From Acidobacteriia bacterium AH_259_A11_L15 (GTDB taxonomy: Bacteria; Acidobacteriota; Terriglobia; Acidiferrales; 2-02-FULL-67-57): a stretch of DNA of 64,000 bases. Below, in pieces: positions 8,136 through 36,480 of this stretch. Location: the NCBI GenBank assembly GCA_027717655.1, contig JALLOH010000003.1:6160-70159 (forward strand), in the 5' to 3' direction. A model generated the notes under the pieces. It was given only the letters and a program-made list of their open reading frames with translations. It was not told the DNA's origin and made no database searches. The first letter of the stretch is position 1; each line of letters starts with the position of its first letter. The position numbers were made by a program, and so were the translations under genes.

Positions 8136-8809
8136 AGCTAGATACGGGCCCTGCTTCAGGTAGACGTGTGCTTGAATTGCATCACCCAGCCTGACGCTTC
8201 CCCGGCCCTATCTGAAGCAGATTCTGCTCCCGTAGCGACGGCGGAGTCAAATAGAGCAAAACCTGCTCAGGATACCGAGCAGCATTAGAAGGCCATACAT
8301 CCGTGGCTTATAGTATGCCTGAGTTGATAGAAGGTGATTTTGTTGCGTCCGTGGCAGAAATCGCACAGGTTGACCGATGGGGGCTCCACCGTCTCGTGAG
8401 GCGGACGTTGCGAGCCGCCTCTGAGGGATTTCAGTTTTCTTGTGGTGGAGGTGGGATTGCGGCCGGAAAGGCCTGCACGGGAAGCGTTTCACCAGAACTG
8501 GTGGCTCTAAGTGGGGATTTTGTTGGGTGGCTTGTAGTAAAAGGCTAGCCCTGTCAAGACGCTAGCTAGCGAGCTTTTTACGGCCGCTTTTTAACCAGTC
8601 GAAAGCCTCGTAGGCGAGACACATGAACTTTCCCGGAGTAGCGGATTCGCCGTCGCTGCACCAAACGTAACCCTTTGGCACGGCAGCGCAGCAAAACTGG
8701 CAGCCTAGATTCGGGCATTTTAAACCCGCTGCTATCCACTCATTGAAGACGGAATTCGACCATACTTCTACTGGTCGAACTACGAAATTGAGGGAAAAGG
8801 TGTGAAATC

Positions 8810-9034
8810 ATGTATACGAAAGTCGATACGAGAGCCCTCAAAGTCTTCGTGAAGAGAGAACTCAGGGATTACCCGCTAGTACGAGAAATTATCCTCCAAG
8901 AACCAAATCATATAGCGGCTCAAGAATTCATCATAAAGGCCAAGATCTGGTTGCAGCTCCTGGCCAGAGAGAAGGAAATCCGAAATTCACGCGACGTCCG
9001 GCTGTTTCACGATCGCCTTGTCGTTCGGCAATAG
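8810..9034 (+). CDS. Small protein resembling those beside archaeal integrases
   Basis: 74 aa (ALKVFV...LVREIILQEP...EFIIKAKIWLQLL), AGGTG-type RBS, convergent with and overlapping the integrase 3' end. Confidence 0.55.
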   Translation: MYTKVDTRALKVFVKRELRDYPLVREIILQEPNHIAAQEFIIKAKIWLQLLAREKEIRNSRDVRLFHDRLVVRQ

Positions 9035-10261
9035 CCCAACAAACTCCCAGCCTTCCAACAGGCGGGTTTCGAGCTCATTAACCGCTATAACCTGTTGCCC
9101 GGCCTGGTTGTTCCTTACTTCTCGGAAGAGTCTCTCTCGTACCAACTTGTGGAACTCCTCCTCGTTGAGCTCCAGCTGCTCTTCTTTGATTTCATCAGGC
9201 TTGAAGCCAGCAACCAGGAGTAGCTGCCGCTTGAAGGCCTTTGTCAGTTCTTCCTCACCGTTCCCGGACTCAACCGTCTGCAAATATCTCTGGGCTTTGG
9301 AGTAGCAGTCTCTCATCTGTTCTATGACTTCGGGCGGTAACTTCCTCTTGTTGAGGGTATAGACTGCCTCAATATCACCTTTATGCCCCATGAAGAAAGA
9401 CCGATAGTCTCGGATGACAAGACCCTTGGATTCAGCCAGCATCATCTGGGTATCAAAGTACGAGCGCAACACATAGGGTCGCCACTGAAAGCCGGCCTTC
9501 CTGATCGCCTTCCTTGCTGCATCTCCTATGTTGATCGTTCTGATGAAATCTTTCTTGGCAATCTTGGGAGTGATAATGGGTGAGTTTCCATGAATCTCCT
9601 CCCCGTTCCGCATCCGCATCTCAAGATATGCTTTCAAATAATCGCAACCCTCGCTCCCAAGAAAGGTGAAGTATTCGTGAGCTTTCTTGCTCAGGTTTGG
9701 TCTCACTCGGACAATGGTAGGGATTCTCTTGAACACAAGCTCGTTTCCCTTCACCTCTATCTCAGAGAGATCCTTCACTCTCAACCCATCAGTGCCTTCA
9801 TAATTGCCCAGAACCTCTGGTCTAAGACCTGAGTGAGCAAGCAACGCGCATACCATTCTGGTTTTCTCATCCGCGGAAAGAAAAATCCTTTTGAGTTCTT
9901 CCTGAGAAGGTATCCGCTCATCCTGTAACGTAGGTGTTTCGCGCATCCCTCGGATCTTTATCCCGCCTCTCACTTGCAGTTCATTGAATGCGAGCCAGGA
10001 TTTCACCGGCTTCAATACGGACGCAATGTAGCCACCTGTGTAACCCTTCGCCTCCATCGCACTTACCGTATCAAGTAACAAGCTGTGAAGTTGTCTGGGT
10101 TTTAGCCGAGTTAGCTGAACCGGGGTAACTTTATTGACCTCGCAAAAACCGCCCAACCTCCGTAAGTACACATCCCCAGTGATCCTCGAACCTCTTGAGA
10201 CGTTTTGATACCAACGTCTCACATCCGCCTGATGCAGCAACTCGTCATACTTTGACGGCAT
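8987..10261 (-). CDS. Tyrosine recombinase/integrase, archaeal-type
   Basis: Catalytic motifs SGLRP (R), PYVLRSYF (Y-x-x-R in place of HxxR), FMGHKG (H) and AVYT (Y). The LGNYEGTDGL insert and the C-terminal GWEFVGLLPN resemble archaeal site-specific integrases. Confidence 0.85.
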   Translation of the reverse strand: MPSKYDELLHQADVRRWYQNVSRGSRITGDVYLRRLGGFCEVNKVTPVQLTRLKPRQLHSLLLDTVSAMEAKGYTGGYIASVLKPVKSWLAFNELQVRGGIKIRGMRETPTLQDERIPSQEELKRIFLSADEKTRMVCALLAHSGLRPEVLGNYEGTDGLRVKDLSEIEVKGNELVFKRIPTIVRVRPNLSKKAHEYFTFLGSEGCDYLKAYLEMRMRNGEEIHGNSPIITPKIAKKDFIRTINIGDAARKAIRKAGFQWRPYVLRSYFDTQMMLAESKGLVIRDYRSFFMGHKGDIEAVYTLNKRKLPPEVIEQMRDCYSKAQRYLQTVESGNGEEELTKAFKRQLLLVAGFKPDEIKEEQLELNEEEFHKLVRERLFREVRNNQAGQQVIAVNELETRLLEGWEFVGLLPNDKAIVKQPDVA

Positions 10262-10272
10262 AAGACGTTATT

Positions 10273-10299
10273 TGGAACCGCATCTATTTAAAGGTTCCA
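10273..10299 (-). promoter_or_regulatory. Archaeal-type TATA box (TTTAAATA) for the integrase, inside a TGGAACC/GGTTCCA inverted repeat
   Basis: The TATA lies at 10292-10285, 24-31 nt upstream of the ATG at 10261, with no Shine-Dalgarno. Inverted-repeat arms at 10273-10279 and 10293-10299. Confidence 0.6.
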
Positions 10300-10313
10300 T
10301 ACCCATATGCGGA

Positions 10314-10330
10314 TGGGTCCGACGGGATTC
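10314..10330 (-). other. tRNA 3'-end fragment (att-like site)
   Basis: The minus strand reads GAAT-CCCGT-CGGACCC-A: T-loop end, T-stem 3' strand, acceptor 3' strand and discriminator A. The 5' part of a tRNA is absent. Confidence 0.65.
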
Positions 10331-11060
10331 ATACGCAAATGGGTTTGAATCTAAGGGAAAATCTCGAAATCAGCAGTGTCTGTCCTACTGGTTTTGCGTT
10401 TTGAGATTAGGTTTTCGGTCTACGAGGCAGAAAACCTCTCGAAGGAGTCTAACGAAAATAAATTGCAGCTTACCTAGCAACTTGCCGAATGCCACCATAC
10501 AGCGGCTTGCAGACTGCTGGGTTTCTGGCCTCTCACAGGCGTAACTCGTATTACCGATGGTTGCTTTTTCTTCGGCTTGTTTGCTTGTTACGCAGGTGAA
10601 TTTTCGACTTGCCGATTGGCTTGCGTCTTTTGCAGGTAACTATGTTAGCGAGGGATTAAATAGATTTCGCTGATTGAAAGGTACATGCTGGCGAGTTGAA
10701 CAGGGAGGCCAAAGCAGCTGCGTTCTGGGTGAATCAAAGGATTCGCTTTTGGTACAGACCAGTTTCCCCACCCGTCGGATGAGGCCGAGGAACAAAAGCT
10801 CTAAGTCCTAACGTTCGCTGGGCCTGAAAGTCACGTGGTCTGCTCAGTGTTTGGACGCGACGGCAGAGTGGGGCACCCCTGCGCGTCCTCTGGAGGTTTC
10901 TAATCACGAATCGGGCACCGGCGTAGTCATTTTTGGGCTGCCCGGCGAATCCATGTCCGCTCGACGACAAAGCGCGCAACTCTCTCTTGCCTAGCATCAA
11001 TCCTAGTGGTTTAGTCGAAGAGAGTTAGGTGTGCTTAACCGCATAAGTTTTGTATTGGCC

Positions 11061-11996
11061 CTACGCCCCTTCGTACCGACTAACGCTAAAAACGACATAG
11101 TTGTACGGGATTAGCCGCTTGTTGTCATCTTTGTTCACAACCTGTCCACTAGCTGGGTTGTAAAGCCACTCGCTCCAGTCCCACACGGTTTCTAGAGTCT
11201 CGGGAATTTGCACGGCGAGGTAGGCACCTTCGGCAAGCCGGGCACGCGTTGGAATGGTGCTGAAATCGAGGCCCATGTAGAAATCCTGCACTGGCACATT
11301 CCTATGACGTACCGCGATGCTTTTGGTCAGACCCAGTGCCATCTGAGAAAGAGGAGCGATGGCTGGCTGCACGGTGGAAGCTAATCTAAGTCCAGCCTTG
11401 AAAACATCCGACTCAAGAAAACCCAAGAAAGCTTCGTCTTCATCGTTCTTTACGTTCACGGTAAAGCACTTGAATGCCACGCCTTCAACACCAACATTCA
11501 GTCCCAAGAAGATGGGATAGCCGATGATGGCGGCCTGCTCGCCCTCCCGTACGCGGTAGGTGGCGTTGAAGTGCAGATGCTCGATATTCTTACCTACCTG
11601 ATTCTGGGCATAGAAGTCGAAAAGCACCCGATGAGTACCACCACCTGGATAAGTTGCCACGCGAAAGCGATCAAGTGTGATTCTGATGCGGCTACTCTTG
11701 AGTACAGGGTCGGGCGGGATGTTGCCAGCGTGCTGGATAAGCAGCGGACCACCACTAGGTCGGGAGGGGGCGATATAACCAAATGCGTGGGCTGTGTGTC
11801 GCCATGGCTTGTCTCCGAAGGGCCACAGTCTCTCAAGCCACCCGAATGTTTCTGGACCGCGCCTCAACTCGCGTTGGGCGGCCTCCAGGGTCGCTGCTGC
11901 ATCATCTTCACCCAATTCGCGCAGTTTGGCCGCCGCTCTCGCTGGCGGCCATTTGCCCACCACAGGCAGGTCATCGAACCAAGTGGATGCGGTCAT
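11061..11996 (-). CDS. Hypothetical protein downstream of the CHAT protease
   Basis: 311-aa ORF with an AAGGAG RBS, co-oriented 57 nt after the CHAT gene. Confidence 0.75.
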   Translation of the reverse strand: MTASTWFDDLPVVGKWPPARAAAKLRELGEDDAAATLEAAQRELRRGPETFGWLERLWPFGDKPWRHTAHAFGYIAPSRPSGGPLLIQHAGNIPPDPVLKSSRIRITLDRFRVATYPGGGTHRVLFDFYAQNQVGKNIEHLHFNATYRVREGEQAAIIGYPIFLGLNVGVEGVAFKCFTVNVKNDEDEAFLGFLESDVFKAGLRLASTVQPAIAPLSQMALGLTKSIAVRHRNVPVQDFYMGLDFSTIPTRARLAEGAYLAVQIPETLETVWDWSEWLYNPASGQVVNKDDNKRLIPYNYVVFSVSRYEGA

Positions 11997-12053: not shown

Positions 12054-15000
12054 TCATTGAAGTCTTTTAATCCACTTGACCAACTTCTTCGTCTGTTGCA
12101 TCTCCTTCTCCGCGAGTGGGCCGTAGGCTTGATAGTTGCGCAAGGCGGCGTTGGCGAACTCCAGAGCATCTGCGTACATGCCTGCGTTCGTTAGCGCGAC
12201 CGCGAAATTGCGGCGTTCTTTGGCTGCCTCATAGAAATCCCCCTCCGATTCAAAATGGCGAATTGCCTCGCTACAGTGAGTCAAGGCGCGTCCCGGGTTA
12301 CCCATATCGTAGTATACATGGGCGAGCCCACTGTGAACCCTCGCCAAATCAGGCGCTGCGTTTGGAGGGATGAGTTCAAGCGCCCGCCAGTAGAATTGTA
12401 CAGCGGCGTTAAGGTGACGGCGCAGCTCTTCCTCTGGCTTTTTGGTTGCCTGAGCTTCTTTGAAGCGTTCATGGGCCACAAGCCCAAGATGACGCAACGA
12501 TGTAGCACGTCCCCCTTGGTGGCGCTCCTCCCAAAGTTCCAAACTACGCCGATACCAGTATTCGGCCTTCGCAAGGTCACGGAGGGCAGGAAGGCCGTAT
12601 ACGTGCCCAAGATTCAATGCGGCGAAGGCCTCGGCGATGCGGTCGCCAATGCGTTGGTGCAAAGCTACGGCTTCCTCGTGAGGCGCAACACACTCGGCTT
12701 TGCCCTGTTCGCGCTGAATGTAGCCCAACTGTGCCAGCGAGACCGCTAGCGTCCGAATGCAGCTACGCTGGTGTGCATCCAGTGCTTCGGGCGGCACGGC
12801 AAGCGCTGAGGCAGCGGATTGGCGTTCCCATGCCACGCGGAGGTTTTGCAAGCGCTCTGCCTCCTTCCACTGCCGCATTTGACGGGCGAGATCCATACGC
12901 CATTCGGTGACGAGGCCCCAGTCCTCCTCCCGCCCGGGCAGCGCGCCGTCCGTGGCCGGCTCGACGAAGTCCGGCACAATCTCATTTACGAGCCGCGCCC
13001 ACTCCACTCGGCGTCCGGCTTGAGAGTAGAGTCCGCGCAAGCCCTGCATCGTACTCGTCAAGGCATTCCACCAGCCATGTGTGCGGGCAAGCCGCCGGGC
13101 ATACAGGAAGTTTTCTTCCTCGATAGTCAGCACGTTAATGATCTTAGGGTCGCCACCTTCGTTCTGAGCGAAACAGTAGTCCCCAAACCAGCCGACCATT
13201 TCGACATAAGCCCTCTCCGCCTGCTCTCGACGATCCGCATAGTGTTGCTCGAACAGACGGCGGAGAAACCAAGGTAGCGCTGGGTGGATGCTGTAGTAGT
13301 CGCCGATGGCAGTGAGCAGGCCGATTTCCGCCGCGCGGTCGAGCAAGGCCCTAGCCGCTTCGCGCGTCAGGCCGCACACCTCGGGCAGACACCAGCCTTT
13401 TTCGGGTACTCCCATCGCTCGCAGCGCACCTGCATGCACAAAGCCCTGAAAAAGGTGCAACAGAGCCAGCTGCTTGCGCTCGGCTTCGCTGAAAGCATGC
13501 TTAAAGCCGTAACTCAATGACGCACCCAAAGACTTCGAGCGTCCTTCACCGGCTTCATCCTCAAATGCGGCTTCGCCAGCGCGCAGTTTGGAGACGAAGC
13601 CTTCTATTTGCTCTCTGGTCCTCAGTCCATCGCGCAGCGCCTGGTCGACCACCACCGTCATTGTCAGCGGGTTGCCTCGTGTGAATTGGAGCAGCGGTCG
13701 CCAGTCTTCCAAGTCGGTTAGTAGCCGGCGATGCTTCTCTGCCAGTGCCTTCGCCAACTGCACACGTTCCTGCATCGGCATGGGCGGCACGATGATGCGC
13801 GCAGGCAGGTTACCCAGCCAAGCGCGTTCGTCACGCCGCGAGGTCAACAGGAATTTGGCTCGCGTCTTCCTCGCCGCACGCAAAAACTCGGCTAACTCCT
13901 GTTGCTCGGCTACGCACCACGCTGAAGACACGCCGGCCGGGAAGCCCGCTACCGTCTCAACGTTGTCCCAAATCCAGAGCACTGGGACTTGCTGCAGCAC
14001 CCGGAGTGCCACATCTCGCCGCTGATCCTCACTCAACGCGAGCCAGTGAATGCCCGTCTGCTCTAGCATCCTACGAAACACTTGCTCAATTGCATCCACT
14101 ACGCGCGCCAGCGGCTTGTACAGCTCGAACGAGGTGAACAGCACCGGTCCATCCACGCCGCCCGTCAGCGTGTACCAGCGTGCAAACTCGGCGGCCGTGG
14201 CTGTCTTGCCGCTCCCTGCGAAGGCGTGCAGAAGGACTATGCTGTGCGTGTCGAAGGCGCGGTCGACGGCCAACAAGGTTTCATCTCGGCCGAAGAAGCC
14301 CACGTCTGGGGGCTTCGGCAGGTTGGCGTCAAGCTTCCCACGCGCCGGCGCGGTATCAGCGGGGTGCAGGGTGATGGTGAATTTCTCGCCTTTGGGTGAC
14401 TTAGGGAAGAGCGCAACCGGCGCAGATTCGTACACGACCGGCACGAGCCAATCTTGCAAGGAGCGCGGAGCGTAAGCGATCTCGCGCAGCGGTTGGTCGT
14501 GCAATTGCTTGCGGCCTAGCGTCACGGCCTCGCCGAGAGTTTGGCCCTGCGTGAGCGCGGCGTACAGGTCGAGCACGAACTGCGCGGCGGTGACGACGTA
14601 GACGTTGTAGCGCATGGCTACTACGCCAGCAACGCCCGTGTCCATCACCTCATGGGCTAGCGAGCCATAGGCGCGCACTTGGCCGTGTGGGTCGTCCTCT
14701 TCTTCCTTGAGCGGAGCCTCAGGCGCGTCGGCGTGGGCGGAACGGCAGGCATTGAGCACCAGCACCGGCACGCCCATCTCGACCAACAGTTTGCCGAGCT
14801 TGTGGCCGCCCACTAACTCGACATTATCCGGCAGCTTGGGATTTTCAAACGCCAAATAGCCATGCGCCCCTTTCCGTAGGGTGGATGGCAACAATGGACT
14901 AAACCTTTTGACTATTTCCTCTAGTTTGTCCGGCTTGGCTACTTCCGCGTACAGCCCATGCCCGTCAAAATGGACGACGCGATACGGCTCACCCTTGGCT

Positions 15001-15656
15001 TTGGCTGCGCGCAGGGCCCGACCCAACTGCTCGAACGTGGGCGGGCGCAGCACGTCCAGTTGGAAGGCATCCCGGGCGGTCGCACTCAGCCCCTTGATGA
15101 GGCGGCTGGCGACCGAGCGAAACGGCACATCCTCGCGTCCGCCAGGGCGACAGACCACCAATAGGATGCGGATGGGGCCGGACCTAGTCGGGGGGAGGTG
15201 CAGGCGTTGCGCGGTTTGGTGATGAGCGCGCACAAAGGCGCGGGCTTGCAGGACTAGCGGCATATCGGTCGTCGGATCGCGAATCAGTTCCCATGGGATG
15301 GTTGCTGCTCCCCGTACATCAGTGAAAATTTCAACGCGGGTGTCTTTCAGGGAACCACGGAGCATGGCCCACAGATCGCGGACGTCGTTGTTGGCCTGAA
15401 ACACGGCCTTGAAGAGTTCTGTTCCAATCTCGGCCATGCGGTTCTCAATACGCGCCGCGATCTTGGGCATGGGGTCTAGCGGGTTTTGCAGGTAGTCTTC
15501 AAGGTACCAGCGTAAGTCCTCTTGCTCTTGCGCGGTGAGTCTGAAGTGAAAGCGGGCAGTGGCGGCGTGGCCAGGCGGCCCAACGCCTTCGAGCACGACT
15601 TCGACGCGGTGTTGGTTATGCACCTCAGAGGCTTGCGTGAGGCGAAGGATTAACAT
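12054..15656 (-). CDS. CHAT (caspase/HetF) protease - STAND/NB-ARC-like NTPase - TPR protein
   Basis: VVHFDGHG and LVLNACRS (His/Cys dyad), AFAGSGKT Walker A, WIWDNVE Walker B, LLTSR, GNPL, C-terminal TPRs. Probable ATG at 15656. Confidence 0.9.
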   Translation of the reverse strand: MLILRLTQASEVHNQHRVEVVLEGVGPPGHAATARFHFRLTAQEQEDLRWYLEDYLQNPLDPMPKIAARIENRMAEIGTELFKAVFQANNDVRDLWAMLRGSLKDTRVEIFTDVRGAATIPWELIRDPTTDMPLVLQARAFVRAHHQTAQRLHLPPTRSGPIRILLVVCRPGGREDVPFRSVASRLIKGLSATARDAFQLDVLRPPTFEQLGRALRAAKAKGEPYRVVHFDGHGLYAEVAKPDKLEEIVKRFSPLLPSTLRKGAHGYLAFENPKLPDNVELVGGHKLGKLLVEMGVPVLVLNACRSAHADAPEAPLKEEEDDPHGQVRAYGSLAHEVMDTGVAGVVAMRYNVYVVTAAQFVLDLYAALTQGQTLGEAVTLGRKQLHDQPLREIAYAPRSLQDWLVPVVYESAPVALFPKSPKGEKFTITLHPADTAPARGKLDANLPKPPDVGFFGRDETLLAVDRAFDTHSIVLLHAFAGSGKTATAAEFARWYTLTGGVDGPVLFTSFELYKPLARVVDAIEQVFRRMLEQTGIHWLALSEDQRRDVALRVLQQVPVLWIWDNVETVAGFPAGVSSAWCVAEQQELAEFLRAARKTRAKFLLTSRRDERAWLGNLPARIIVPPMPMQERVQLAKALAEKHRRLLTDLEDWRPLLQFTRGNPLTMTVVVDQALRDGLRTREQIEGFVSKLRAGEAAFEDEAGEGRSKSLGASLSYGFKHAFSEAERKQLALLHLFQGFVHAGALRAMGVPEKGWCLPEVCGLTREAARALLDRAAEIGLLTAIGDYYSIHPALPWFLRRLFEQHYADRREQAERAYVEMVGWFGDYCFAQNEGGDPKIINVLTIEEENFLYARRLARTHGWWNALTSTMQGLRGLYSQAGRRVEWARLVNEIVPDFVEPATDGALPGREEDWGLVTEWRMDLARQMRQWKEAERLQNLRVAWERQSAASALAVPPEALDAHQRSCIRTLAVSLAQLGYIQREQGKAECVAPHEEAVALHQRIGDRIAEAFAALNLGHVYGLPALRDLAKAEYWYRRSLELWEERHQGGRATSLRHLGLVAHERFKEAQATKKPEEELRRHLNAAVQFYWRALELIPPNAAPDLARVHSGLAHVYYDMGNPGRALTHCSEAIRHFESEGDFYEAAKERRNFAVALTNAGMYADALEFANAALRNYQAYGPLAEKEMQQTKKLVKWIKRLQ

Positions 15657-16155
15657 CGGGATCCCAAAAATAGTTTTGTGTAGAAAAACCTGGGCCCAAA
15701 TATTCCTTTTTGTCTCGAACCAACTACAGCTTAGCACGTCGGTGACTTCCCTGCTAGCGTTGCTGTTTTCAGAGACTCTTCAAACGACGTTTCCATAGTG
15801 TTTCCAAACATAGCTTTCAATACAGGCAGCGACGAGCCGGAGGCCGGCCTGACACCAAGCGGATTCGGAGGCGTCGGCAGAAAACTTTTCACCTGCATAA
15901 CCAGCAGCCTGCAAACCTGACCTTTAAGTCTATTCTGTCCTGATGTGACGATAATTGGAGGTACGTTGCGTGCTTGCGAAGAGAAGTAGACACTCCGGCG
16001 ACGAAATGCTTGCTAGTGTGCGCAGACACATAAATGAGAGCTCCAGCTCGCTAAGTGCTTTCAGGAAGACCTACCTTCAGGAGCTGGATGGCTGCGTGCC
16101 AGCGGAGTTTGTTGGCGACGACCTACTTTACTCAATCAAGGAAAAGTATGAAGGA

Positions 16156-16763: not shown

Positions 16764-17618
16764 TCACTCAAGCCTCGTCCACTCATACCAGCCTGCAATG
16801 CCGAGCTCTTTTGCCCAGGCATCTGCCACTCTTATGTCGTTTACATAACCTCTGTCTGTTTCTGCCATATATGAGTCCAGCTTCTCGCCTATCTCGGCAA
16901 AACCTTCTTCGCGGTAGGGCGCAATGAGTCCCGGCTCGTTCAGCAGCTTGCTTGTAGCCTTGGCCAAGACGTAGTTCATGCTGTTTGTCTTTTTGTAGAT
17001 TGAGGGAGGCGTCCACTTCTCGATCTCCGGGTCAAGACATTTGATTGATGTGGCATAGAGCTCACGCAGGGCAGAAGCCTGAATGTCTCTGAGCGGCTCG
17101 AAGTTGTTATGAATCCAGGCCTCTATCCTGCAATCTGCTGGGGTGTTCGTCAGCTGACGGACGAGGCCTGAGCACAAGCACTCAAGAAATTCCTTCATTC
17201 TACGGTTGGAGACATAGTTCTTCAGTTTCCAAGTTTCTCCATGCAGTTGCCTAATGGCTTTTCTGAGAGTTTCTGGATTCGTCGCAGGCACAAGACGGTC
17301 TTCTGGCCTAGCAGAGAAAAAGCGGTAGATGTGCCCGCATTCATGCGCGACAAGGTAGTCCAGGTATCTTGCATGGGCTGGATGATAAGCAATTAGGCAG
17401 ACCTTTTCTCCCTTTCTTGGATACCGGGTAGCACTCCACACCTGCAGAGTGGGGTCGCTTTCGAGGATAATCGGGAACCCACTGACCGATGAGGCTAGCT
17501 CGACCACATTACTACCTCTCTGCGAAGTAGCTCGCGACATTCTTTGCTTTTCTGTCTCAAGCCATAAAAAGCTTGCGCGTGTGCAATGCCACACTTGCAA
17601 GTGAAGCGGACCGCTCAT
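16764..17618 (-). CDS. HExxH zinc-metallopeptidase-like protein
   Basis: YLVAHECGHI. The true start is probably the internal MSRATSQ. Confidence 0.6.
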   Translation of the reverse strand: MSGPLHLQVWHCTRASFLWLETEKQRMSRATSQRGSNVVELASSVSGFPIILESDPTLQVWSATRYPRKGEKVCLIAYHPAHARYLDYLVAHECGHIYRFFSARPEDRLVPATNPETLRKAIRQLHGETWKLKNYVSNRRMKEFLECLCSGLVRQLTNTPADCRIEAWIHNNFEPLRDIQASALRELYATSIKCLDPEIEKWTPPSIYKKTNSMNYVLAKATSKLLNEPGLIAPYREEGFAEIGEKLDSYMAETDRGYVNDIRVADAWAKELGIAGWYEWTRLE

Positions 17619-17716
17619 TTTTAAGTTGAAGCGAGGAAGGGTTACGTAATGGAACCGTAATGCGTGAAAGGAATAACCCGCACCATGACCGTGTCAGATT
17701 TTAATTGCTCTTAATC

Positions 17717-18766
17717 ATGACCAAGAAAATGAATGAACGATCACTCATCGCGAACGCTTCTGCTTTCGCCCAAGCCTATATCCCGTCGATCTTCGTTGCG
17801 AGACAGCCCGAGATTACAAGACTTCGCAGTTACCTCGCTCCACTTGTTCGCAAGCAACCGATCAAGAACATTTGGATTCATGGCCCATCTGGGGCAGGCA
17901 AGACTTGCGTAGCCAAATTCCTCCTCAACGAATTGGAGGAACAGCATCAGATCAAGGGAGTCTACGTCAATTGCTGGGAGACCGAGACCTTCTTCTCCAT
18001 TTTGGACAAGGTGGTCCGGGACTTTCGCATCCTCGGAGCAGAGCGCCTGAGCACTGTGTACAAGATGGAAAGGCTTGAGAACTATTTGCAAAGCAAGCCG
18101 TTGCTTATCGTCCTGGATGAGCTCGACAAGCCGTCGCCCAAAGAAAGAGATTCGATTATCTACAACCTGTGCGGGATACCGAGCGTGACCCTCATTTGCA
18201 TCTGCAACAGCCGCTACTTCTACTACATTCTCGACAGCAGAGTGAGGTCCCGACTGGATGCCGTGCTGCTGGAGTTCAAGCCCTACGCCCTTGAAGACGT
18301 TCAAGAAATCCTGCGGCAGAGAGCGGAATTAGGGTTGAAGCCTGAAGCAGCGAAACAGGCCGTTCTACGGAAGGTAGCCCGGCTCGCCAACGGGGATGCC
18401 AGAATTGCCATCCAGACCTTGCGACATGCGGCAAGCTACGCCGATGTGTATGCCGGCGACCGAATCCAAGCTGATCATGTCAAGAGCGGCCACAGCATCG
18501 CGCGAAACGCCAAGAAGAAGTATGTTCTCGGCAAACTGTCTGACCACCACCAGCTCATCTACGGAATCATCCAGGACTTCGGCGAGGTCAGGTCAGGTGA
18601 GCTCTGGAAAGAATATCTGCTGCGCTGCAAGCAGGCCGGAATGCCATCGGCCGCGCCTCGAACCTTTTCGCTCTACATCAAAAAGCTGGAAGAAGTCGAT
18701 CTAGTTACGAGCGCAAGGGCCCTCGGTATCAAGGGAAATGTGCGGGTGTTCAGGGTTCGGAGATAA
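17717..18766 (+). CDS. cdc6: Orc1/Cdc6-family AAA+ replication initiator
   Basis: IHGPSGAGKT, VYVNC, LIVLDELD, LDSRVRSRL, FKPY...ILRQR, GDARIAI and a C-terminal winged helix. Confidence 0.85.
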   Translation: MTKKMNERSLIANASAFAQAYIPSIFVARQPEITRLRSYLAPLVRKQPIKNIWIHGPSGAGKTCVAKFLLNELEEQHQIKGVYVNCWETETFFSILDKVVRDFRILGAERLSTVYKMERLENYLQSKPLLIVLDELDKPSPKERDSIIYNLCGIPSVTLICICNSRYFYYILDSRVRSRLDAVLLEFKPYALEDVQEILRQRAELGLKPEAAKQAVLRKVARLANGDARIAIQTLRHAASYADVYAGDRIQADHVKSGHSIARNAKKKYVLGKLSDHHQLIYGIIQDFGEVRSGELWKEYLLRCKQAGMPSAAPRTFSLYIKKLEEVDLVTSARALGIKGNVRVFRVRR

Positions 18767-18785: not shown

Positions 18786-20540
18786 ACGGCCAGCATTTCC
18801 CGTCTTCTGGGCAAGGTCCACTGCTCCGATGCAGCCAAGTTCATACGCAGATTGCCCGACGAGTGTATCGATTTTGTAATGACCTCTCCGCCCTACTGGG
18901 GGCTTCGAGATTACTGTGTGGAAGGTCAGATTGGGCTCGAAAAACATCCGCACGAATACATTGAAAAACTTGCAAATATCTTTCATGACCTGAAGCGTGT
19001 TCTGAAACCGCACGGCTCCTTATATCTCAATCTTGGAGACACCTATTGCAGCACCAAAGGCACATGTGTCAATGCAGGAGGTGGGCAAAGTTCTATACGA
19101 CAATCTGCGTACACACGGCTGGCTGGAAACAAGAATCCCAATCGCATGCTCAAGCCAGACGGTCAGTGGCTTCAGCCCAAGCAACTACTGATGATTCCCG
19201 CGCGGGTAGCCATTGCCTTGCAAGAGAATGGCTGGATATTAAGGAACGACATCATCTGGTACAAGCCGAACGGCCTTCCCAGCAGCGTCAAGGATCGCCT
19301 TGCAAACAAGTATGAGCATGTCTTTCACTTCGTCAAAAGCCGTACGTACTACTATGACCTGGACGCCATCCGAGTACCTCACAAACGAGGAACTCCGAGA
19401 GCAGAATACGATTTCGAGCGCATGATGAAAGGCGGTGAGCGCTTTAACGGAAAATGGGGCAAGGCTGGTACCCAGAAGGCATTCGTCGCTGGAAACGTTC
19501 TTGGCAAAAAGCCTGGCGATGTTGTTCTTTCTAGAGACAAGACGGCGGCCCTCAGGAAAATCAACTCGATGCGAAATCCGCCTGAGCCGACTGAACCCGA
19601 CGCTTTTCATCCTCTTGGGAAGAATCCAGGGGATTTCATAGAACTTGAGGGCAGCACGTACCCAGACATAGACAACCCTGAGTATTGCTACCGATCAGCG
19701 CCTAGGAAGCGCAGTGAGCGGAAGCAGAACGCGGAAGCGGCTAACAGTTCTGCATGCTCGAATGCAGACATCTCTTGGACAATCAACGTAAACGGCAAGA
19801 ATAGGGGAGGAATCTATCGCAGCGATGAAGAAGAGTTAGGCTTTTGGAAACAGGTCGTACTGGAGGAGTACGCAAAGGCTGGCAAAGCTGGCGGTAAAAG
19901 ATTCTCAGGCAAGCACCAGGCTCTTGATGAGCGGTCTCCCTTGTTCAGAATAGCTCTGAACAGCGGCCAGATGAGGAATAGCGTCTATTACATAATTGAC
20001 ACCCTGAATGTGTCTCGCGGTTTGAAGCAAAAGCTCAAAAACTGGTGGCATGACCATAGCGGCCATTGCCTTGGGTCAAACCCTGGTGACTTCTGGAGGA
20101 TAACTACGAAGCCTTTTCCAAAGGCGCATTTTGCTGTTTATCCAGAAGAGCTCTGCATTAGGCCGATCCTTTCATCCTGCCCGCGCTTGGCCTGTAGGGA
20201 ATGCAGTAAACCTCCGCACATACTACGTTCGCATGTCGGCAGGAACCAAGGCGATTGGAGAACTGAGGCAAGAAGAAAGGGCCTGCCAGTGGACACAGTG
20301 GTAGCACATCTAGGAGGTGGGCATACAGGGCTTTCCCCAGGCTACCGTGAGAGGCACGTAGTAGGTTGGAAGGATTGCGGTTGCAATGCCGGTGTTGAGC
20401 CCGGGATTGTCTTCGACCCGTTTGCAGGAACAGGCACAACCCTTTTGGTTGCGAAGAAGCTGGGGCGTAGATGGCTTGGATGTGAGCTAAATCCCAAATT
20501 CGTGAAAATGGCAAATCAGCGAATCAGTAACAACTACTAG
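18786..20540 (+). CDS. Site-specific DNA methyltransferase (N4C/N6A, beta class) with a large insertion; start codon uncertain
   Basis: TSPPY, LNLGD, IIWYKPN, HFAVYPEEL and DPFAGTGTT. Homology extends upstream of the TTG at 18852 (LGKVHCSDA). Confidence 0.9.
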   Translation, partial: TASISRLLGKVHCSDAAKFIRRLPDECIDFVMTSPPYWGLRDYCVEGQIGLEKHPHEYIEKLANIFHDLKRVLKPHGSLYLNLGDTYCSTKGTCVNAGGGQSSIRQSAYTRLAGNKNPNRMLKPDGQWLQPKQLLMIPARVAIALQENGWILRNDIIWYKPNGLPSSVKDRLANKYEHVFHFVKSRTYYYDLDAIRVPHKRGTPRAEYDFERMMKGGERFNGKWGKAGTQKAFVAGNVLGKKPGDVVLSRDKTAALRKINSMRNPPEPTEPDAFHPLGKNPGDFIELEGSTYPDIDNPEYCYRSAPRKRSERKQNAEAANSSACSNADISWTINVNGKNRGGIYRSDEEELGFWKQVVLEEYAKAGKAGGKRFSGKHQALDERSPLFRIALNSGQMRNSVYYIIDTLNVSRGLKQKLKNWWHDHSGHCLGSNPGDFWRITTKPFPKAHFAVYPEELCIRPILSSCPRLACRECSKPPHILRSHVGRNQGDWRTEARRKGLPVDTVVAHLGGGHTGLSPGYRERHVVGWKDCGCNAGVEPGIVFDPFAGTGTTLLVAKKLGRRWLGCELNPKFVKMANQRISNNY

Positions 20541-23929: not shown

Positions 23930-25957
23930 CTAGGGTTTCAGCAGAGGATCATCGGCGCCAAGAAACGACCTGACATCTCGAATAATGATGCGTGGATATG
24001 ATGGGCACTCTGGGGGGTCCGTCTGTCGAGCAATCGCGTGGACCAAATTTCTACGCGTGACAAGTACAACGATAGTTTCATATCCGGCCCGAACGCATTT
24101 TTGGACATTCTCTTTGGCATCGGAACGTCCCGTTTCTATCTCGATAGCTACTTCTCGACCCTCTTTGCCTGCTAGTAGGTCGATTGTCTTGCCGCCACCG
24201 ACTGGCTTTTCCATCTCGACTTTGTACCCCCGTCTTTCCAGGTGCTGAGCGACCTTCTCCTTCCAATACTCGTGCTCCGGGCCTCCTCTACCTCTTGTGG
24301 GCACTTCAAAGCCAAGATTCTTCAGCGCCTCTTTTCCTTTCTCGGTCAGCCACAACAACCTAACCCGACCTTTGCCACTTGATATATCAACTGGCTCAAT
24401 CAAACCTTTCAAGAGAAGCACGGTGCACACCTTGTTGCCAAAATACGAAGAAAGATTAAGACGACAGTATCTCTCAGCAACCCCCGACGTTATATTCTCC
24501 ATAACGTCTCTCAGCAATTCTATTTCTTCTTTTGTTAGTTTTTCCGCCGGCCGCATCGGCAGAATCTCAGCCTTCCTCTTCCCATCAGCCAGAATCTCGA
24601 TGCTTGCCCCAGACAAACCCGGCGATTGCGCAGCCACGTCTCGGTCCGTCATCTTGCCCTTGTCGACGTATACGAGCGGGAACTTCACCAAAAAGGGCTT
24701 GTACCACCTGCCTTGCAGTCGAACGATGCCATGACCTACAGGCAGCTTGCCGAGGTACTCCTTCTCTTCTGCGCCAAGGAGCGTCGCATTAGCTATCGTT
24801 GATACATCGTGGCCGTGCTTGAGATTCATGGCTACTGTGCAGTAGGTATTGCCTAGGGAGGGAACAGAAATGAGCGAAGGGTGCTGGTCGATCAGGATAA
24901 TTGACTCACCCAGCTCCCGGATCTCCCGCAGAATCACGTCCATAATTGTCTCCTTGGATTGCTTCCGCTTTAGTAGAACGTGATGAGCTTCCTCGATGAT
25001 GATCGCGTGTTTGAGTGTCTCCCGGCTTTGCTCCTGCAGCCGGTAATGATGAATCCAGAGGAGCATGGCCTCGATGAGGAAAGTCTTGTCTGCGTTCGTC
25101 AGGGCGTCGAGTTCCAGGACAGCATTTCTTTTCAGAAGAGCTCCAAGACCGGAAGGCTGCCGGACATTCAAGACCTTACCTATGTCTCCGTAGCAGAGGG
25201 TCGCGATTGCCCTTTTTGTCGAGTCCATCCACTGGGCTTCCCGACCTTTGACCTTTGCTTTGATGAGCCATTCCTTGACATCGGCGAGAGTAGGAAATGA
25301 TTCGGGCTCGTTATCGTACATCCCAAACTGCTCGTAAATCCCGTCAATAGCTTCTTGCAGCAAGTATGCCACGCCTTCTCCTAGCCAGTACACGTGGCAC
25401 ATGATTTCGATGAGCTTCTTGAGCCAGATTGACGGCTTTGTTCCTTCAGGCGGGATGAGCGGGTTAAAAGTAAAAGGAGCAACGTTCCGTCCGACTGTGT
25501 AGACAACAAGCTGGCCCCGGCCCACGACCTGGAGCAGGTCCCGGTAGTTCCGCTTCCAATCAAATACAAGTATTGGAATGCCTTTGGCGAGCAGCGATTT
25601 TGCTACCAAGAAACCAACATTCGTTTTCCCGCTGCCCGTGCGCCCGAAGATTCCTACATGCTGAATCCATTCGTTCTGGCGAAGCCCGAATGATCCGAAC
25701 CCCCTAGGTCCATAGACGACGGTGCCAAGAGGGTAATCACCCCCTGATTGCTCCGCTGGTGGTGGTTCTAGAAAGATTCGCTTCGTCGTGTAAGGCTTTC
25801 CGAGATGCTTGGCGGCCAAAAGCTGTAGGAATCCGTCGATCTCGCTTCTCTTCTTCGGATTCAGCTGGTACTCGAGCCAAAGAGGATCGAGTCTGTCGCC
25901 TAGGATCGGCCTGAGCTTCTGGAAAATTTCCTCTGTGTCCACGTGGATCAACCTCAT
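23930..25957 (-). CDS. HerA/FtsK (DUF87-type) ATPase fused to a winged helix and a C-terminal PD-(D/E)XK nuclease
   Basis: HVGIFGRTGSGKT, VFDWK, IIIEEAH and IDQHP; C-terminal EH...IDLL...AIEIETG. Confidence 0.8.
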   Translation of the reverse strand: MRLIHVDTEEIFQKLRPILGDRLDPLWLEYQLNPKKRSEIDGFLQLLAAKHLGKPYTTKRIFLEPPPAEQSGGDYPLGTVVYGPRGFGSFGLRQNEWIQHVGIFGRTGSGKTNVGFLVAKSLLAKGIPILVFDWKRNYRDLLQVVGRGQLVVYTVGRNVAPFTFNPLIPPEGTKPSIWLKKLIEIMCHVYWLGEGVAYLLQEAIDGIYEQFGMYDNEPESFPTLADVKEWLIKAKVKGREAQWMDSTKRAIATLCYGDIGKVLNVRQPSGLGALLKRNAVLELDALTNADKTFLIEAMLLWIHHYRLQEQSRETLKHAIIIEEAHHVLLKRKQSKETIMDVILREIRELGESIILIDQHPSLISVPSLGNTYCTVAMNLKHGHDVSTIANATLLGAEEKEYLGKLPVGHGIVRLQGRWYKPFLVKFPLVYVDKGKMTDRDVAAQSPGLSGASIEILADGKRKAEILPMRPAEKLTKEEIELLRDVMENITSGVAERYCRLNLSSYFGNKVCTVLLLKGLIEPVDISSGKGRVRLLWLTEKGKEALKNLGFEVPTRGRGGPEHEYWKEKVAQHLERRGYKVEMEKPVGGGKTIDLLAGKEGREVAIEIETGRSDAKENVQKCVRAGYETIVVLVTRRNLVHAIARQTDPPECPSYPRIIIRDVRSFLGADDPLLKP

Positions 25958-26502
25958 AGTAGACCAAGGCGACTGAGCAAAGATTTGTACTCGACAACTC
26001 CTTCTCGAAATTCCTTTCGTAGGCTGGAAATGTCTTGCCAGGTTCTCAGGAGGGAGCTTCGCCTCTCCTTGCGAAGGTTGGAGAGTTCTCTTTCCAGGTG
26101 GTTGCGCTTTATGTCCACACCTGTGTTGTATCCGACACCCCAGCCAGTGAAGTGGTCGAGCGACAGCGCAGCTTGGGAAATCTGATAGTCTATTTCCCGT
26201 AGGGTCTCATCCTGAAGCTGCGCCCGGGCCAGCACCTCTTCTTCGAGTTGGTCTATCGTGGACCTGCTATCTTTGAGCTTGCCGATGACGTAGCTCTGGG
26301 CTTCATCCTCGGGTTCAGGCAGCGGCTTTCCCTCCGGTAGGAAGCGTCTGAGGTCAAAGAGTTTCCTTACGAGGTCGCCTGTCGGTTTGCGCTCATCCCA
26401 GGGCGGCTTCGGCATGCCGACTTCAAGGAACAAGGGTTGTTCGAAAAAGTCGAAGTAGTGCCAGAGCTCTTCGTAAAGCTGGTGGTCCACAGCGATCGCC
26501 AA
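25954..26502 (-). CDS. Coiled-coil hypothetical protein coupled to the HerA-nuclease gene
   Basis: Its stop codon overlaps the ATPase ATG (ATGA). Helical heptad pattern. Confidence 0.65.
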   Translation of the reverse strand: MAIAVDHQLYEELWHYFDFFEQPLFLEVGMPKPPWDERKPTGDLVRKLFDLRRFLPEGKPLPEPEDEAQSYVIGKLKDSRSTIDQLEEEVLARAQLQDETLREIDYQISQAALSLDHFTGWGVGYNTGVDIKRNHLERELSNLRKERRSSLLRTWQDISSLRKEFREGVVEYKSLLSRLGLL

Positions 26503-31144: not shown

Positions 31145-32002
31145 ATGCCGTTTCGCGATCTCTTAAGGCAGGACAGCGAGTTTTGGGAGGCCTGCGCAAG
31201 GCACACCAATCGTCAAACAGCACGTACGGTTCAAGCAATTTATTTGTGTGACGTATGTGCAATCCGCTTGACTCGTGAGGCTTTCAACGAGCGACCACCC
31301 ATCTATCATGGCGAGAGCATTACCGGCTTTTGCGGACTCTGTAACGAAGAGAAAACAGCCACGCTGCGGCTTTGGTTTGTTTGCGCTTTTTGCTGGAATG
31401 TCGTCCTTGCCTACCAAAAGGCCTTTGTCGCAAGCCGAGCTGTTCACGACTACTGGAAAGACTCAGTTGCATCGTCTTTCCCCCAACTAAAGCTTTCTGA
31501 AAAGGAAGCAGTCCGTCTTTCTCCGTACATGCGTAAAGGAAAAACCAAGAAATCAGCCGCAGAAACTCTCAGGGAGCTCGATTTTCTTGTCGAAGAAGAA
31601 GTGCGGCAGCAGAGAACTCCGCTGTTTCACATAGAGCTTAAGGCAGGACCGGGCTCAATAGAAGAGATGACTGAGTTTCAATTGGACATCAATGACTCCA
31701 ATGACATTATCGGTGTAGCCAACAACACGAAGCTTCCGGTCTACATTTTTCATGTCAAGTTGGAGCATCGATATGCCCCGCCTACGAGGTACACGGTTTC
31801 TACGAGGATATGGTGGACAGACATATTCACTCTCTTAAAAAACCGACTCGCAGTTAGACAGCGGAGGGGAGAAGAGAAACAGGCAGGCTACTATGCTCCG
31901 ACTGCCTTCAGGCCAATTGACCAGTTTATTCAGGAGTTAGAAGTCAGGGGGCATGCGCAATTGCGAGAGCGCCTTATGGGTCAGCCACTGGAACTTACCT
32001 GA
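31145..32002 (+). CDS. Putative restriction endonuclease (Zn-finger + PD-(D/E)XK)
   Basis: CDVC/CGLC/CAFC and LDFLV...IELKAG. Convergent with the MTase. Confidence 0.6.
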   Translation: MPFRDLLRQDSEFWEACARHTNRQTARTVQAIYLCDVCAIRLTREAFNERPPIYHGESITGFCGLCNEEKTATLRLWFVCAFCWNVVLAYQKAFVASRAVHDYWKDSVASSFPQLKLSEKEAVRLSPYMRKGKTKKSAAETLRELDFLVEEEVRQQRTPLFHIELKAGPGSIEEMTEFQLDINDSNDIIGVANNTKLPVYIFHVKLEHRYAPPTRYTVSTRIWWTDIFTLLKNRLAVRQRRGEEKQAGYYAPTAFRPIDQFIQELEVRGHAQLRERLMGQPLELT

Positions 32003-33678
32003 CTTAGGCTAGGCCTCTTTGAGGCCATTGAAAGCCTGCGTAGTTCGGTTACACCTTCCTGAATAATCTCTAGTTTTTCCTGAGAAATTGCAAAGCACTC
32101 GGCGATTTCCTTGTCTAATCGATTGCGGTTAAGGTGTCTGGTGAATTCCAGATATGCTCTTTCAGTTTGCTGCCTGGCCCTAGCATCTAAGAGACGGGGA
32201 TTCAGTACCGGCAATTCCTGTACATCCAGCGGATTGAGATTGAAAACGCCTCCTCCATATTGTTGGGCTCGGGAGCGGCATCCTAGCTCGAAAAACGAAG
32301 TATTGAGGATGCTGAGTAGGGCTGTCGTGTCGGCCTTATCTATGGGCTGTGCTTCTATAAAGTTTTCATTTCCGACCACACCTGCCTTGTTCCAGATTAC
32401 AAGGAAGTTCTCATAAAACCGGCGGGGAATGAATATAGAATAACGTCGTCGTCTCTTTATTTCGTCAGCCAAATTGTACCAGGGTACACGCCCAGCCTTC
32501 TGCAACCGTGGGAGATTCTGATATCCGGTGACTGTCCTTTCCTTGCCGCGGATCCGCACCTCAGTGTTCTCCGCTGCCTTGATGTACTTAACAAGGGCCT
32601 TACTCTCGATCTCTGGCAAAGGTTTGCTGACAAAGAGAATCCGGTGCGAAACGGACTCGCCGTCTTCGATGATCGGATCCGATATCTCCCTAGGGGAGAA
32701 TGCCAACGGCTGAAAATATTTCTTGGGGATGCTCAGATTGTCGGCTTTCGCAGTCTCTAAGATGTAAAAATCTCTTGCCAAAGGTTGAATCCCAATCCGC
32801 GTTCTCGCTACCTTCCCGAGAGCGGTGCATTTGTCCACCGGAAGCGTGAAGTACGCCTGCGGCTGACGCACATAGATACCCCAGGGCTGCCTCTCGTCGA
32901 GGTCTGTCTGCCTGATGGTCGCCAGTGAACCTAAGCTTCCCAGTTGCTGTCTTGTCATTTGGGAAAACCCAGAAATGAACTCAGGTAGACGAACAAAACT
33001 CACCTCATCTGCTTCCGAGGGAGTACCTTTCTCCGCGAAGAGCATCACGGACTTCACGAGGACATCTGCGAAAAGCTTGCCTTCGCAAATAGCGAGCATC
33101 CTGATTCTAAAGTTGCGTAGAAAGAATTCCTTAAGGGCTATCCCGTAATCCGTGTCCATCCAGGAACTCGAAATGATCACGGCTATCCGGCCGTGTGGTT
33201 CGAGAAACTGTGAAGCGTAGATCAGGAAGTAGCTGTAAAGATCGGTTAGACGAGGCAGACGCGCTAGGAATAGGTCGTGGAAAATCACCCGTTCGCGGAC
33301 GCGATCAATTTCGTCCAACGTACTCCGCCGCACATAAGGAGGATTCCCCACGACCGCAGAAATCGGAGGAAATCGGGTATCAAAGAAATCGGCATTCAGA
33401 AACTGTGGAAGGGTTGTGCCAATCGATTCTTTGATGGTTTGACAAGCACGTTCGTAGACCGGGTGATCGCGTTCAACGCCGAAAACCTGTGCTTGAACTT
33501 GCTGATCTGAACAGCCAAGAGCTTTCAACCTCTTCGCAGCCTCGCAGAGAAAGACACCCTCCCCAGCCCCAATATCGAGTATTGTCTGGTTTTTGTTTTG
33601 CACGGCCCAAGAAACAAGTTCTTCTGCAATCACAGCTGGCGTGAGTACGAGACCGATCTGTTTGGAAAGTGTCACCAT
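31981..33678 (-). CDS. N6-adenine DNA methyltransferase (gamma class, Eco57I/TaqI-like)
   Basis: ILDIGAGEGVFL, ADFF, VVGNPPYVR, DLYSYF and a C-terminal TRD region. Confidence 0.9.
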   Translation of the reverse strand: MVTLSKQIGLVLTPAVIAEELVSWAVQNKNQTILDIGAGEGVFLCEAAKRLKALGCSDQQVQAQVFGVERDHPVYERACQTIKESIGTTLPQFLNADFFDTRFPPISAVVGNPPYVRRSTLDEIDRVRERVIFHDLFLARLPRLTDLYSYFLIYASQFLEPHGRIAVIISSSWMDTDYGIALKEFFLRNFRIRMLAICEGKLFADVLVKSVMLFAEKGTPSEADEVSFVRLPEFISGFSQMTRQQLGSLGSLATIRQTDLDERQPWGIYVRQPQAYFTLPVDKCTALGKVARTRIGIQPLARDFYILETAKADNLSIPKKYFQPLAFSPREISDPIIEDGESVSHRILFVSKPLPEIESKALVKYIKAAENTEVRIRGKERTVTGYQNLPRLQKAGRVPWYNLADEIKRRRRYSIFIPRRFYENFLVIWNKAGVVGNENFIEAQPIDKADTTALLSILNTSFFELGCRSRAQQYGGGVFNLNPLDVQELPVLNPRLLDARARQQTERAYLEFTRHLNRNRLDKEIAECFAISQEKLEIIQEGVTELRRLSMASKRPSLSQVSSSG

Positions 33679-33810
33679 CCGTGCTTCTTATAGCACAAAA
33701 CTGGAAGGTACCGTCAAATCTACAGCTTCCTCACGACGAGTCGATGATCTATTGCTAGTTGTGAGCTTTGCCGCTGGTCCCACAGCTCGCTCCGAGCATC
33801 TTGTCGGCTC

Positions 33811-36464: not shown

Positions 36465-36480
36465 AGGACACAGACGCCTT

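Follow-up and report, generated by a model that had tools for sequence, protein, structure and literature searches.

The stretch of DNA analysed here, called the window, comprises 64,000 nt of contig C333 in assembly G000, a fragmented metagenome-assembled genome (MAG) of an acidobacterium (939 contigs, 2.63 Mb, 75.6% complete, bin GC about 64%). Coordinates are window positions unless a contig is named. The window carries a gene for a tyrosine integrase of an archaeal-type family, a small companion gene convergent with it, and, ahead of the integrase start codon, a TATA-like box and a 17-nt sequence corresponding to the 3' end of a tRNA. The latter is the putative core of an attachment (att) site. 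The positions of these features, and of others which are discussed further on, are collected in Table 1.

The integrase was compared with protein families and structures. Pfam gave no family at E <= 0.01 for the 424-residue protein, PF00589 (Phage_integrase) included, and the sole NCBIfam match was archaeal XerA, whose cutoff of 220 bits was missed by far with a score of 26. The best sequence match in the PDB was XerA of P. abyssi (4A8E), and it was weak (E 1e-3, 21 bits). Because PF00589 is missed in the window copy yet matched in the precomputed annotation of some relatives, the family is taken to consist of divergent tyrosine recombinases, with the window copy falling below the PF00589 threshold. 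The catalytic Arg, the x-x-Arg box, the His and the Tyr line up with those of 4A8E, and the residues follow the order known for tyrosine recombinases (Arg, Lys, box, His, Tyr). Unlike XerA, which it matches only weakly, the integrase is no Xer-type chromosome resolvase, its relatives being found at junctions between tRNA genes and elements. R147, K192, Y263-x-x-R266, H293 and Y301 are each retained in 77-78 of the 78 aligned family members, and for this reason the protein looks catalytically intact. The HxxR box starts with Tyr, not His, in all 78. Beyond the catalytic Tyr there is a C-terminal extension of about 120 aa (8987-9350, residues about 305-424), which matches no family but is retained across the integrase family, with relatives spanning 98-100% of the protein and G404 invariant in the 78 rows.

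The public gene call for the integrase (P0001) is 356 aa long, or 84% of the open reading frame (ORF). Since relatives align from residue 1 and cover residues 1-424, the 424-aa reading is to be preferred. The public call was probably trimmed at its N-terminus since the true start lacks a ribosome-binding site.

Relatives of the integrase are numerous. Among 8000 scored candidates, 3647 proteins matched at E <= 1e-3, and an exhaustive search returned 2034 cluster representatives at the same threshold (497 at E <= 1e-30). In GTDB, where each species is represented by one genome, 135 stretches encode a relative; among the viral contigs of IMG/VR there were 22 pattern matches, none of which encodes one. 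Of the best 80 GTDB loci, 78 are archaeal records (Nitrososphaerota, Bathyarchaeia, Thermoplasmata and DPANN). The two bacterial loci are L001 from an Acidobacteria MAG, which is the best match (69% identity), and L004 on a 1.39-Mb contig of a Chloroflexia MAG (61%). A KSB1 bacterium was also found among the integrase matches.

A quick maximum-likelihood tree of 78 rows was constructed from the full-length GTDB loci, 8 named and 24 unnamed proteins, mostly the closest matches, with the root placed by midpoint only. The window integrase lies in a 25-row clade (Shimodaira-Hasegawa approximate likelihood ratio test, SH-aLRT, 100) which is nested among rows from Bathyarchaeia, Thermoplasmata and Nitrososphaerota and consists of L001, L004, two DPANN loci and 21 unnamed proteins. 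The integrase of L001 is 76% identical to that of L095 and 69% identical to that of the window, and the tree pairs L001 with the L095 protein (SH-aLRT 99). Ahead of the L095 integrase is a full tRNA-like gene whose acceptor halves are complementary and which holds an insert; L095 interleaves in the tree with the two acidobacterial copies, those of the window and of L001. When window and L001 were constrained as exclusive sisters, the approximately unbiased (AU) test gave p = 0.054, which is borderline and not quite a rejection, for a group that was chosen after the tree had been seen. Distribution and tree support the view that the family is overwhelmingly archaeal and that the window copy clusters with archaeal integrases. 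The archaeal style ascribed to the integrase in a first-pass annotation, made from the sequence alone, is thus upheld. The phylogeny which that annotation proposed as a check gave a divided answer: the nearest named neighbour sits in an Acidobacteria MAG, while the whole clade is nested within archaeal diversity.

The small companion ORF which had been noted beside the integrase was found to have matches in 30 of 159 related loci (tblastn, E <= 1e-3; best E = 4e-22), with a short ORF present in 29 of the 30. In relatives it is mostly convergent at the 3' end of the integrase gene and sometimes lies elsewhere. Lys11 and Trp47 are invariant in 20 aligned copies. Judged by this conservation the companion is a real gene, as had been proposed. 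The protein belongs to no Pfam family, and the best hit of a profile search against the PDB had an E value of only 0.14. Its AlphaFold model (predicted local distance difference test, pLDDT, 89.9) has the order strand-helix-helix-strand-long helix, for which fold searches gave no significant match (Foldseek best E 2.0; VIA-align best Z 5.3, not above the noise for helical models). From its position, the product could be a directionality factor or a regulator. An 8-bp inverted repeat had also been listed as part of the cassette. It exists, at the place given in Table 1, but 17 such repeats (loop of 3-12 nt) occur in the window against 11.3 +/- 4.0 in shuffled sequences, and the two nearest loci, L095 and L001, lack it in their homologous DNA. 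For these two reasons the repeat is treated as a chance occurrence and given no weight.

Archaeal promoters have an A/T-rich octamer about 25 nt before the start point, with a purine-rich B recognition element (BRE) ahead of it, and leaderless archaeal genes have no Shine-Dalgarno sequence. The window sequence from -37 to -24 fits this BRE/TATA consensus. Each strand of the 64 kb holds the octamer TTTAAATA once, and the 23 nt which separate it from the ATG hold no GGAGG-like Shine-Dalgarno run, so that the box reported 24-31 nt ahead of a start without a Shine-Dalgarno sequence was correctly described. In an archaeal reading these signals imply a leaderless integrase mRNA. A scan of 8300-11100 for promoters of the sigma-70 type found 0 sites, with 1.9 expected.

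The same arrangement was observed in relatives. In 36 of the 80 GTDB loci the integrase is closely preceded by a tRNA gene on the same strand; with the intron search of ARAGORN, such a gene was identified in 43 of 129 judgeable loci, 9 of the 43 with introns. Clean tRNA cloverleaves with introns of 48 and 69 nt lie upstream of the integrases of L002 and L097. The end of the tRNA is followed in the family by a short palindromic motif, a BRE-like hexamer, a TATA-like octamer, a gap of 22-26 nt and the ATG, and the same BRE/TATA-like block stands at the same position in relatives which follow intact archaeal tRNA genes. The promoter-like box and the tRNA fragment of the window are accordingly homologous to this cis layout and no chance resemblances.

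The position of the 17-nt core within the tRNA was established by alignment with the intact tRNAs that precede the integrases of relatives, and it agrees with the tRNA 3' end, cut at the T-loop, that had first been recognized in the sequence. No tRNA gene was found in the 64-kb window by ARAGORN. With one mismatch allowed, a search of the 2.63-Mb assembly, which is 75.6% complete, gave only this copy of the core, and no second one that could serve as an attR direct repeat. Four loci, namely the window, L001, L004 and L103/L104 (a metagenome contig), have no 5' half of the tRNA and share in its place a non-tRNA block of about 24 nt; upstream of this block the sequences can no longer be aligned. 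Within the block, 11 nt (10344-10334) form an inverted copy of 10310-10300 across the core, with 10 of 11 matches. Genes related to those of the element flank the site on both sides. Because the tRNA 5' half is missing, the arm is shared and element-related genes lie on either side, the simplest reading is that of an unrecombined attP, consisting of a conserved arm, a core equal to the tRNA 3' end, and a second arm. The earlier proposal that the end of an integrative element had been captured is not supported: the site is in the attP form with element-related DNA to both sides, and the ends of the island that carries it, made by a serine recombinase, are 45 kb away. In one relative, L066, 18 nt of the tRNA 3' end are found again, as a direct repeat, 3.1 kb downstream, and the two copies delimit a minimal element; the window core is similar in length. 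L066 was the only clear case in a search of the relatives for direct repeats of at least 14 nt, in which four other repeats bounded no element.

A one-mismatch copy of the 17-mer is present in another Acidobacteriota genome (L186; G174:C417:6267-6583), followed by a motif like the palindrome found after the tRNAs. No integrase was found in the 2.2 kb examined there, and the copy may be a stray att site.

The core was compared with the tRNA genes of both domains, as had been suggested at the outset, and the comparison favoured archaea. In 400 other Acidobacteriota genomes there were 19 matches with up to one mismatch, in 18 genomes, and none of the 19 lies in a tRNA gene, as judged with ARAGORN and, for 18 of them, from the surrounding sequence. 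Six matches occur in 351 genomes from the archaeal phylum of L005; three are tRNA 3' ends, one of them (tRNA-Met) identical to the 17-mer of L001. Among the related loci the nearest core matches are archaeal tRNA-Val genes, with 2-3 mismatches. Although the counts are small, they point to an archaeal tRNA as the target.

Table 1. Features of the integration module, the associated element genes and the carrier island in the 64,000-nt window
Feature	Position	Strand	Remarks
Tyrosine integrase, archaeal-type family	8987-10261	minus	ORF of 424 aa; ATG at 10261-10259
Companion gene, 74 aa	8810-9034	plus	Convergent with the integrase; 48-nt overlap with its 3' end
TATA-like box TTTAAATA	10292-10285	minus	-31 to -24 from the A of the ATG
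BRE-like GGAACC	10298-10293	minus	Directly before the TATA-like box; both together span -37 to -24
Putative att core, 17 nt, tRNA 3' end	10330-10314	minus	T-loop position 57 to discriminator base; 3' end 52 nt from the ATG
Non-tRNA arm	10331-10354	minus	Block of about 24 nt upstream of the core, shared by the window, L001, L004 and L103
8-bp inverted repeat, 9-nt loop	8755-8762 / 8772-8779		Probably not a functional part
284-aa protein	16764-17618	minus	Shared with a second acidobacterial island (G002:C115), 62% identity
Orc1/Cdc6	17705-18766	plus	Putative; 62% identity to a gene on G002:C115
DNA methyltransferase	18852-20540	plus	42% identity to a gene on G002:C115
HerA/VirB4/TraG-like ATPase (675 aa) and 182-aa partner	23930-26502	minus	57-62% and 38% identity to L004/G001; DUF87, P-loop_TraG
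Large serine recombinase	53339-55021	plus	Right island end; Resolvase, Recombinase and Zn_ribbon_recom domains; NCBIfam XisF/Ccr-type matches
attR junction and 3' part of split yifB/comM	55022-55915	plus	Host DNA from here to the window end

The immediate neighbours of the module, which had been described as bacterial genes, are a LuxR/GerE regulator and a CHAT-AAA-TPR protein. That description holds loosely: these neighbours are cargo of an island, and host DNA begins only at 55022, about 45 kb from the integrase. Contig C333 has a GC content of 52% in its first 60 kb and of 62-68% thereafter, with the step at about 54 kb of the window, and the tetranucleotide profile and GC of the low-GC part differ from those of the rest of the bin. 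From 55022 on, the sequence is collinear with contigs of a genome of the same genus (G003:C4) and of one of the same family (G005:C14), in both of which the host flank runs straight into the homologue of another contig of the assembly, C531, giving the empty site. The point of interruption is at the codons for the Walker-A motif of yifB/comM, which G003 carries as an uninterrupted gene (TIGR00368 YifB/ComM, 649 bits). The 5' half of the split gene is found at C531:6355-7083 (ChlI and Mg_chelatase domains), joined to 6.4 kb of DNA with 47-55% GC. The island thus comprises window 1-55021, C333:1-6159 and C531:1-6393, at least 67 kb of 52% GC. With the recombinase at the edge, both halves of the split target recovered and the site empty in relatives, the large serine recombinase is judged to have inserted this island into yifB/comM, a known hotspot for islands. 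In 60 relatives of the same order no copy of the integrase was found. The counts of host-flank and same-order relatives include three unpublished genomes (G010, G025 and G029), which enter into no other result. Since the congener has an empty site and the GC content is unadjusted, the island is recent in its present host.

The serine recombinase frame crosses the junction and runs for 133 more codons into the yifB/comM remnant, to 55420; the next ORF, at 55436-55915, is in the same frame.

The division of the island over two contigs is probably explained by a transposase of an insertion sequence near the end of C531 (C531:171-1547; DDE_Tnp_1_4, 389 bits) and by a repeat of about 100-170 nt that is common to several contig ends (C333:1-97 and C531:1-115) and to a spot in the host flank (about 58820-58990). 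In a MAG of 939 contigs whose island differs in GC and tetranucleotide profile from the rest of the bin, archaeal DNA might have been misjoined to an acidobacterial contig, in assembly or in binning. Such an artefact is hardly credible here. Both halves of yifB/comM are joined to low-GC DNA at the same codon on separate contigs, the edge is occupied by a serine recombinase, the site is empty in two relatives, and related modules, described below, are linked to bacterial genes in two independent assemblies, once on a contig of 1.39 Mb. As such modules occur in three independent assemblies in all, a chimera is considered unlikely. It was also considered whether the whole contig could be archaeal and mis-binned, on account of the Orc1/Cdc6 gene, the mevalonate genes and the low GC; this was ruled out by the host flank and both yifB/comM junctions.

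More than an integrase cassette was found on the island. A probable Orc1/Cdc6 gene lies 7 kb upstream of the att site, past the CHAT-AAA-TPR gene, which is of higher GC; its product scored 175.5 bits against TIGR02928 (cutoff 181.3) and 52 bits against Cdc6_lid (cutoff 27). A 284-aa protein, a DNA methyltransferase and a HerA/VirB4/TraG-like ATPase with its partner are also encoded (Table 1).

The gene of the CHAT-AAA-TPR protein (1227 aa, 12054-15737, 60-63% GC) separates the att site from the Orc1 module. Nothing like it stands at the corresponding position of the related Acidobacteria contig, and the gene looks like a later insertion into the element.

Similar modules were identified on two other bacterial contigs. 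The first, G002:C115, is the 95-kb contig of L001 and is titled Acidobacteria. Compared with the window, its integrase is 69% identical, the companion 45%, Orc1/Cdc6 62%, a 259-aa protein 62%, the methyltransferases 42% and a 230-aa protein 57%. Immediately upstream of the att site of L001 there are two Orc1/Cdc6 genes. A large serine recombinase at 44.5-46.4 kb (G002:C115:44532-46427) marks the end of this second acidobacterial island; beyond it are hemE and then acidobacterial-type genes which are 45-62% identical to contigs of the window's bin. In both acidobacterial islands the integrase module is about 44 kb from the large serine recombinase, and five genes are held in common. Between the two serine recombinases there is hardly any similarity (22% identity over 190 aa). 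The second contig is that of the Chloroflexia MAG, where a 12-kb patch of 36-41% GC in a background of 42-49% holds the integrase, the companion, the HerA/VirB4-like ATPase (57-62% identical to that of the window) and a weak Orc1-like AAA protein. At the edge of this patch are two PF00589 integrases of the ordinary kind. No serine recombinase was found in other related loci within the flanking sequence examined.

This recurrence bears on the age of the association. The first-pass annotation had assumed a capture recent enough for archaeal cis signals to be retained, but the same signals are found in three bacteria-linked copies, and because copies whose integrases are only 61-69% identical keep them, their retention need not reflect recency. 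The idea that a piece of an archaeal element was captured once, and recently, and is now decaying neutrally, with its signals surviving through shortness of time, would agree with the empty yifB/comM site of the same-genus relative, with an island still at 52% GC in a 64% GC genome, and with the right-hand inverted-repeat arm beside the core, which is slightly degenerate compared with relatives. We nevertheless regard it as distinctly improbable, given that module and cis signals recur on the two other bacterial contigs, that more than a fragment is present (Orc1/Cdc6, methyltransferase and ATPase), and that neither ORF has a frameshift or stop codon.

Our preferred interpretation is that the region from about 8690 to 10355 is the complete, unrecombined integration module of an archaeal-type, tRNA-targeting integrative element, carried as cargo of a bacterial island that was placed by a serine recombinase. 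A probability of roughly 0.6 is assigned to it. The module would consist of the companion gene, an integrase expressed from the BRE/TATA-type promoter as a leaderless mRNA, and the attP-form site. In archaeal hosts, members of the family would recombine the core with a tRNA 3' end, giving rise to the order tRNA, 50-100 nt, integrase. Together with Orc1/Cdc6, the methyltransferase and the HerA/VirB4-like ATPase, the module would be cargo in the island of at least 67 kb and 52% GC, which the serine recombinase, and not the tyrosine integrase, placed in yifB/comM of the 64% GC acidobacterium. An archaeal origin of the module is inferred from the archaeal family, the conserved cis layout and the physical linkage to acidobacterial host genes, in line with the cross-domain origin suggested earlier. 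With a single att copy and no matching tRNA in the assembly, the integrase would be unable to excise anything here, and our guess is that the module is silent in its present host.

Several observations weigh against this interpretation. In the clade of the window integrase, 21 of the 25 rows are unnamed metagenome proteins not assigned to a host domain, and the nearest named relative is itself bacterial, from an Acidobacteria MAG. The second att arm was observed in four loci only, and the contiguity of the 45 kb from integrase to host junction is given by the assembly alone. Among named proteins, the close homologues of Orc1/Cdc6 belong to bacterial MAGs (Binatia 72%, Acidobacteria 62%) and those of archaea reach no more than about 31% identity, for which reason the wider element could have its home in bacteria. 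Three bacteria-linked copies, with integrases that are 31-39% different, retain undamaged att motifs, promoter-like box and both ORFs, and an intact module argues against a silent passenger because such a passenger should decay.

The last two observations suit a different explanation, by which the module belongs to an element lineage that is now resident in bacteria and uses the integrase, companion and att site there, for a bacterial integration target, for dimer resolution or for the joining of carrier islands, the 'archaeal' box being kept as a protein-binding or promoter element. The like architecture of the two acidobacterial islands with their five shared genes, the presence of all catalytic residues in an undamaged integrase, the conservation of att arm and box among copies 61-69% identical, and the KSB1 bacterium among the matches also agree with it. 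A bacterial lineage of this kind is nonetheless thought unlikely, if worth keeping in view. The 400 other Acidobacteriota genomes sampled yielded no tRNA that ends in the core, the assembly has a single att copy, and the scan of 8300-11100 gave no sigma-70-type promoter. The clade loci with an intact upstream tRNA carry archaeal-style intron genes (L002 and L097, and the insert of L095), and with serine recombinases so dissimilar the two islands may have acquired the module separately.

A more far-reaching proposal is that the island is a two-domain shuttle, with the serine recombinase and its bacterial-style signals for entry into bacterial genes such as yifB/comM, and the tyrosine integrase, attP and BRE/TATA signals together with Orc1/Cdc6 for archaeal tRNA genes. 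It is put forward as a speculation which we consider very unlikely. If true, it would explain why an archaeal-type module is intact with conserved cis signals in three bacteria-linked copies, why a bacterial-type recombinase lies beside each of the three, and why the tRNA-adjacent L095 interleaves with two acidobacterial copies that are 69% identical to each other. Under the preferred interpretation, that of an archaeal-type module riding as cargo, there is good evidence from sequence comparison that mobile DNA has moved between archaea and bacteria.

The remainder of the island carries further cargo. At 43732-45958 a degradative-type HMG-CoA reductase gene (TIGR00532, 381 bits) is convergent with one for mevalonate kinase (TIGR00549, 209 bits), which is unusual for a bacterial island. 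Defence-type cargo is located at 31981-42707 and 51644-52489. It includes an oligonucleotide cyclase of a cyclic oligonucleotide-based antiphage signalling system (CBASS; NF041117, 294 bits), a ThiF/E1-like protein, an arcadin-4/Rad50-like SMC ATPase, methyltransferases, an AAA ATPase similar to IteA and an antitoxin-like helix-turn-helix protein.

The module was also compared with known systems. The thaumarchaeal integrated elements described by Krupovic et al. (2019; PMC6563490), cryptic ones and ICEs among them, target the 3'-distal part of tRNA genes, intron-bearing ones included, with a median att length of 17 bp; their tyrosine recombinase stays intact on integration, and some of them carry Cdc6/Orc1 and conjugation-type ATPases. 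The 17-nt att of the window corresponds to this description, and many relatives of its integrase are in Nitrososphaerota MAGs. Unlike those elements, likened here by description, the module of the window lies in a bacterial chromosome, is in the attP form and is nested in a serine-recombinase island. It also differs from archaeal tRNA-targeting elements in having no intact tRNA at the integrase-proximal junction (attL) and no second core (attR). As in the pNOB8-type ('type II') archaeal integrases described in PMC8371274, att lies outside an unsplit integrase gene and the family extends across archaeal phyla. The absence of a Pfam match recalls the fam30-08 integrases in the same account (Badel et al. 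2021); as the comparison is by description, identity with that family is only a lead, and the Tyr-first HxxR box and the extension of about 120 aa after the catalytic Tyr set the window family apart from both descriptions. The carrier, as distinct from the cassette, resembles bacterial islands of large serine recombinases in its edge recombinase, split target and empty site in relatives. The integrons in Archaea, a bacterial-type system described in PMC9668308 as a platform for cross-domain gene transfer, are similar in that genomes of one domain harbour a recombination module typical of the other; the case of the window has the opposite direction and a different recombination system. No description of the integrase family of the window in bacterial islands was found in the literature searched.

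Transfers of single genes between archaea and bacteria are well documented, but their vehicles are rarely caught. Here an archaeal-style integration module and an Orc1/Cdc6 gene are linked to bacterial chromosomes in three independent assemblies, each copy apparently unrecombined and beside a bacterial-type recombinase. This suggests a route by which genes may flow between the domains, namely archaeal-type plasmid-like elements which ride on bacterial islands. The window would supply a defined attP, an integrase and a companion protein that are amenable to work in vitro.

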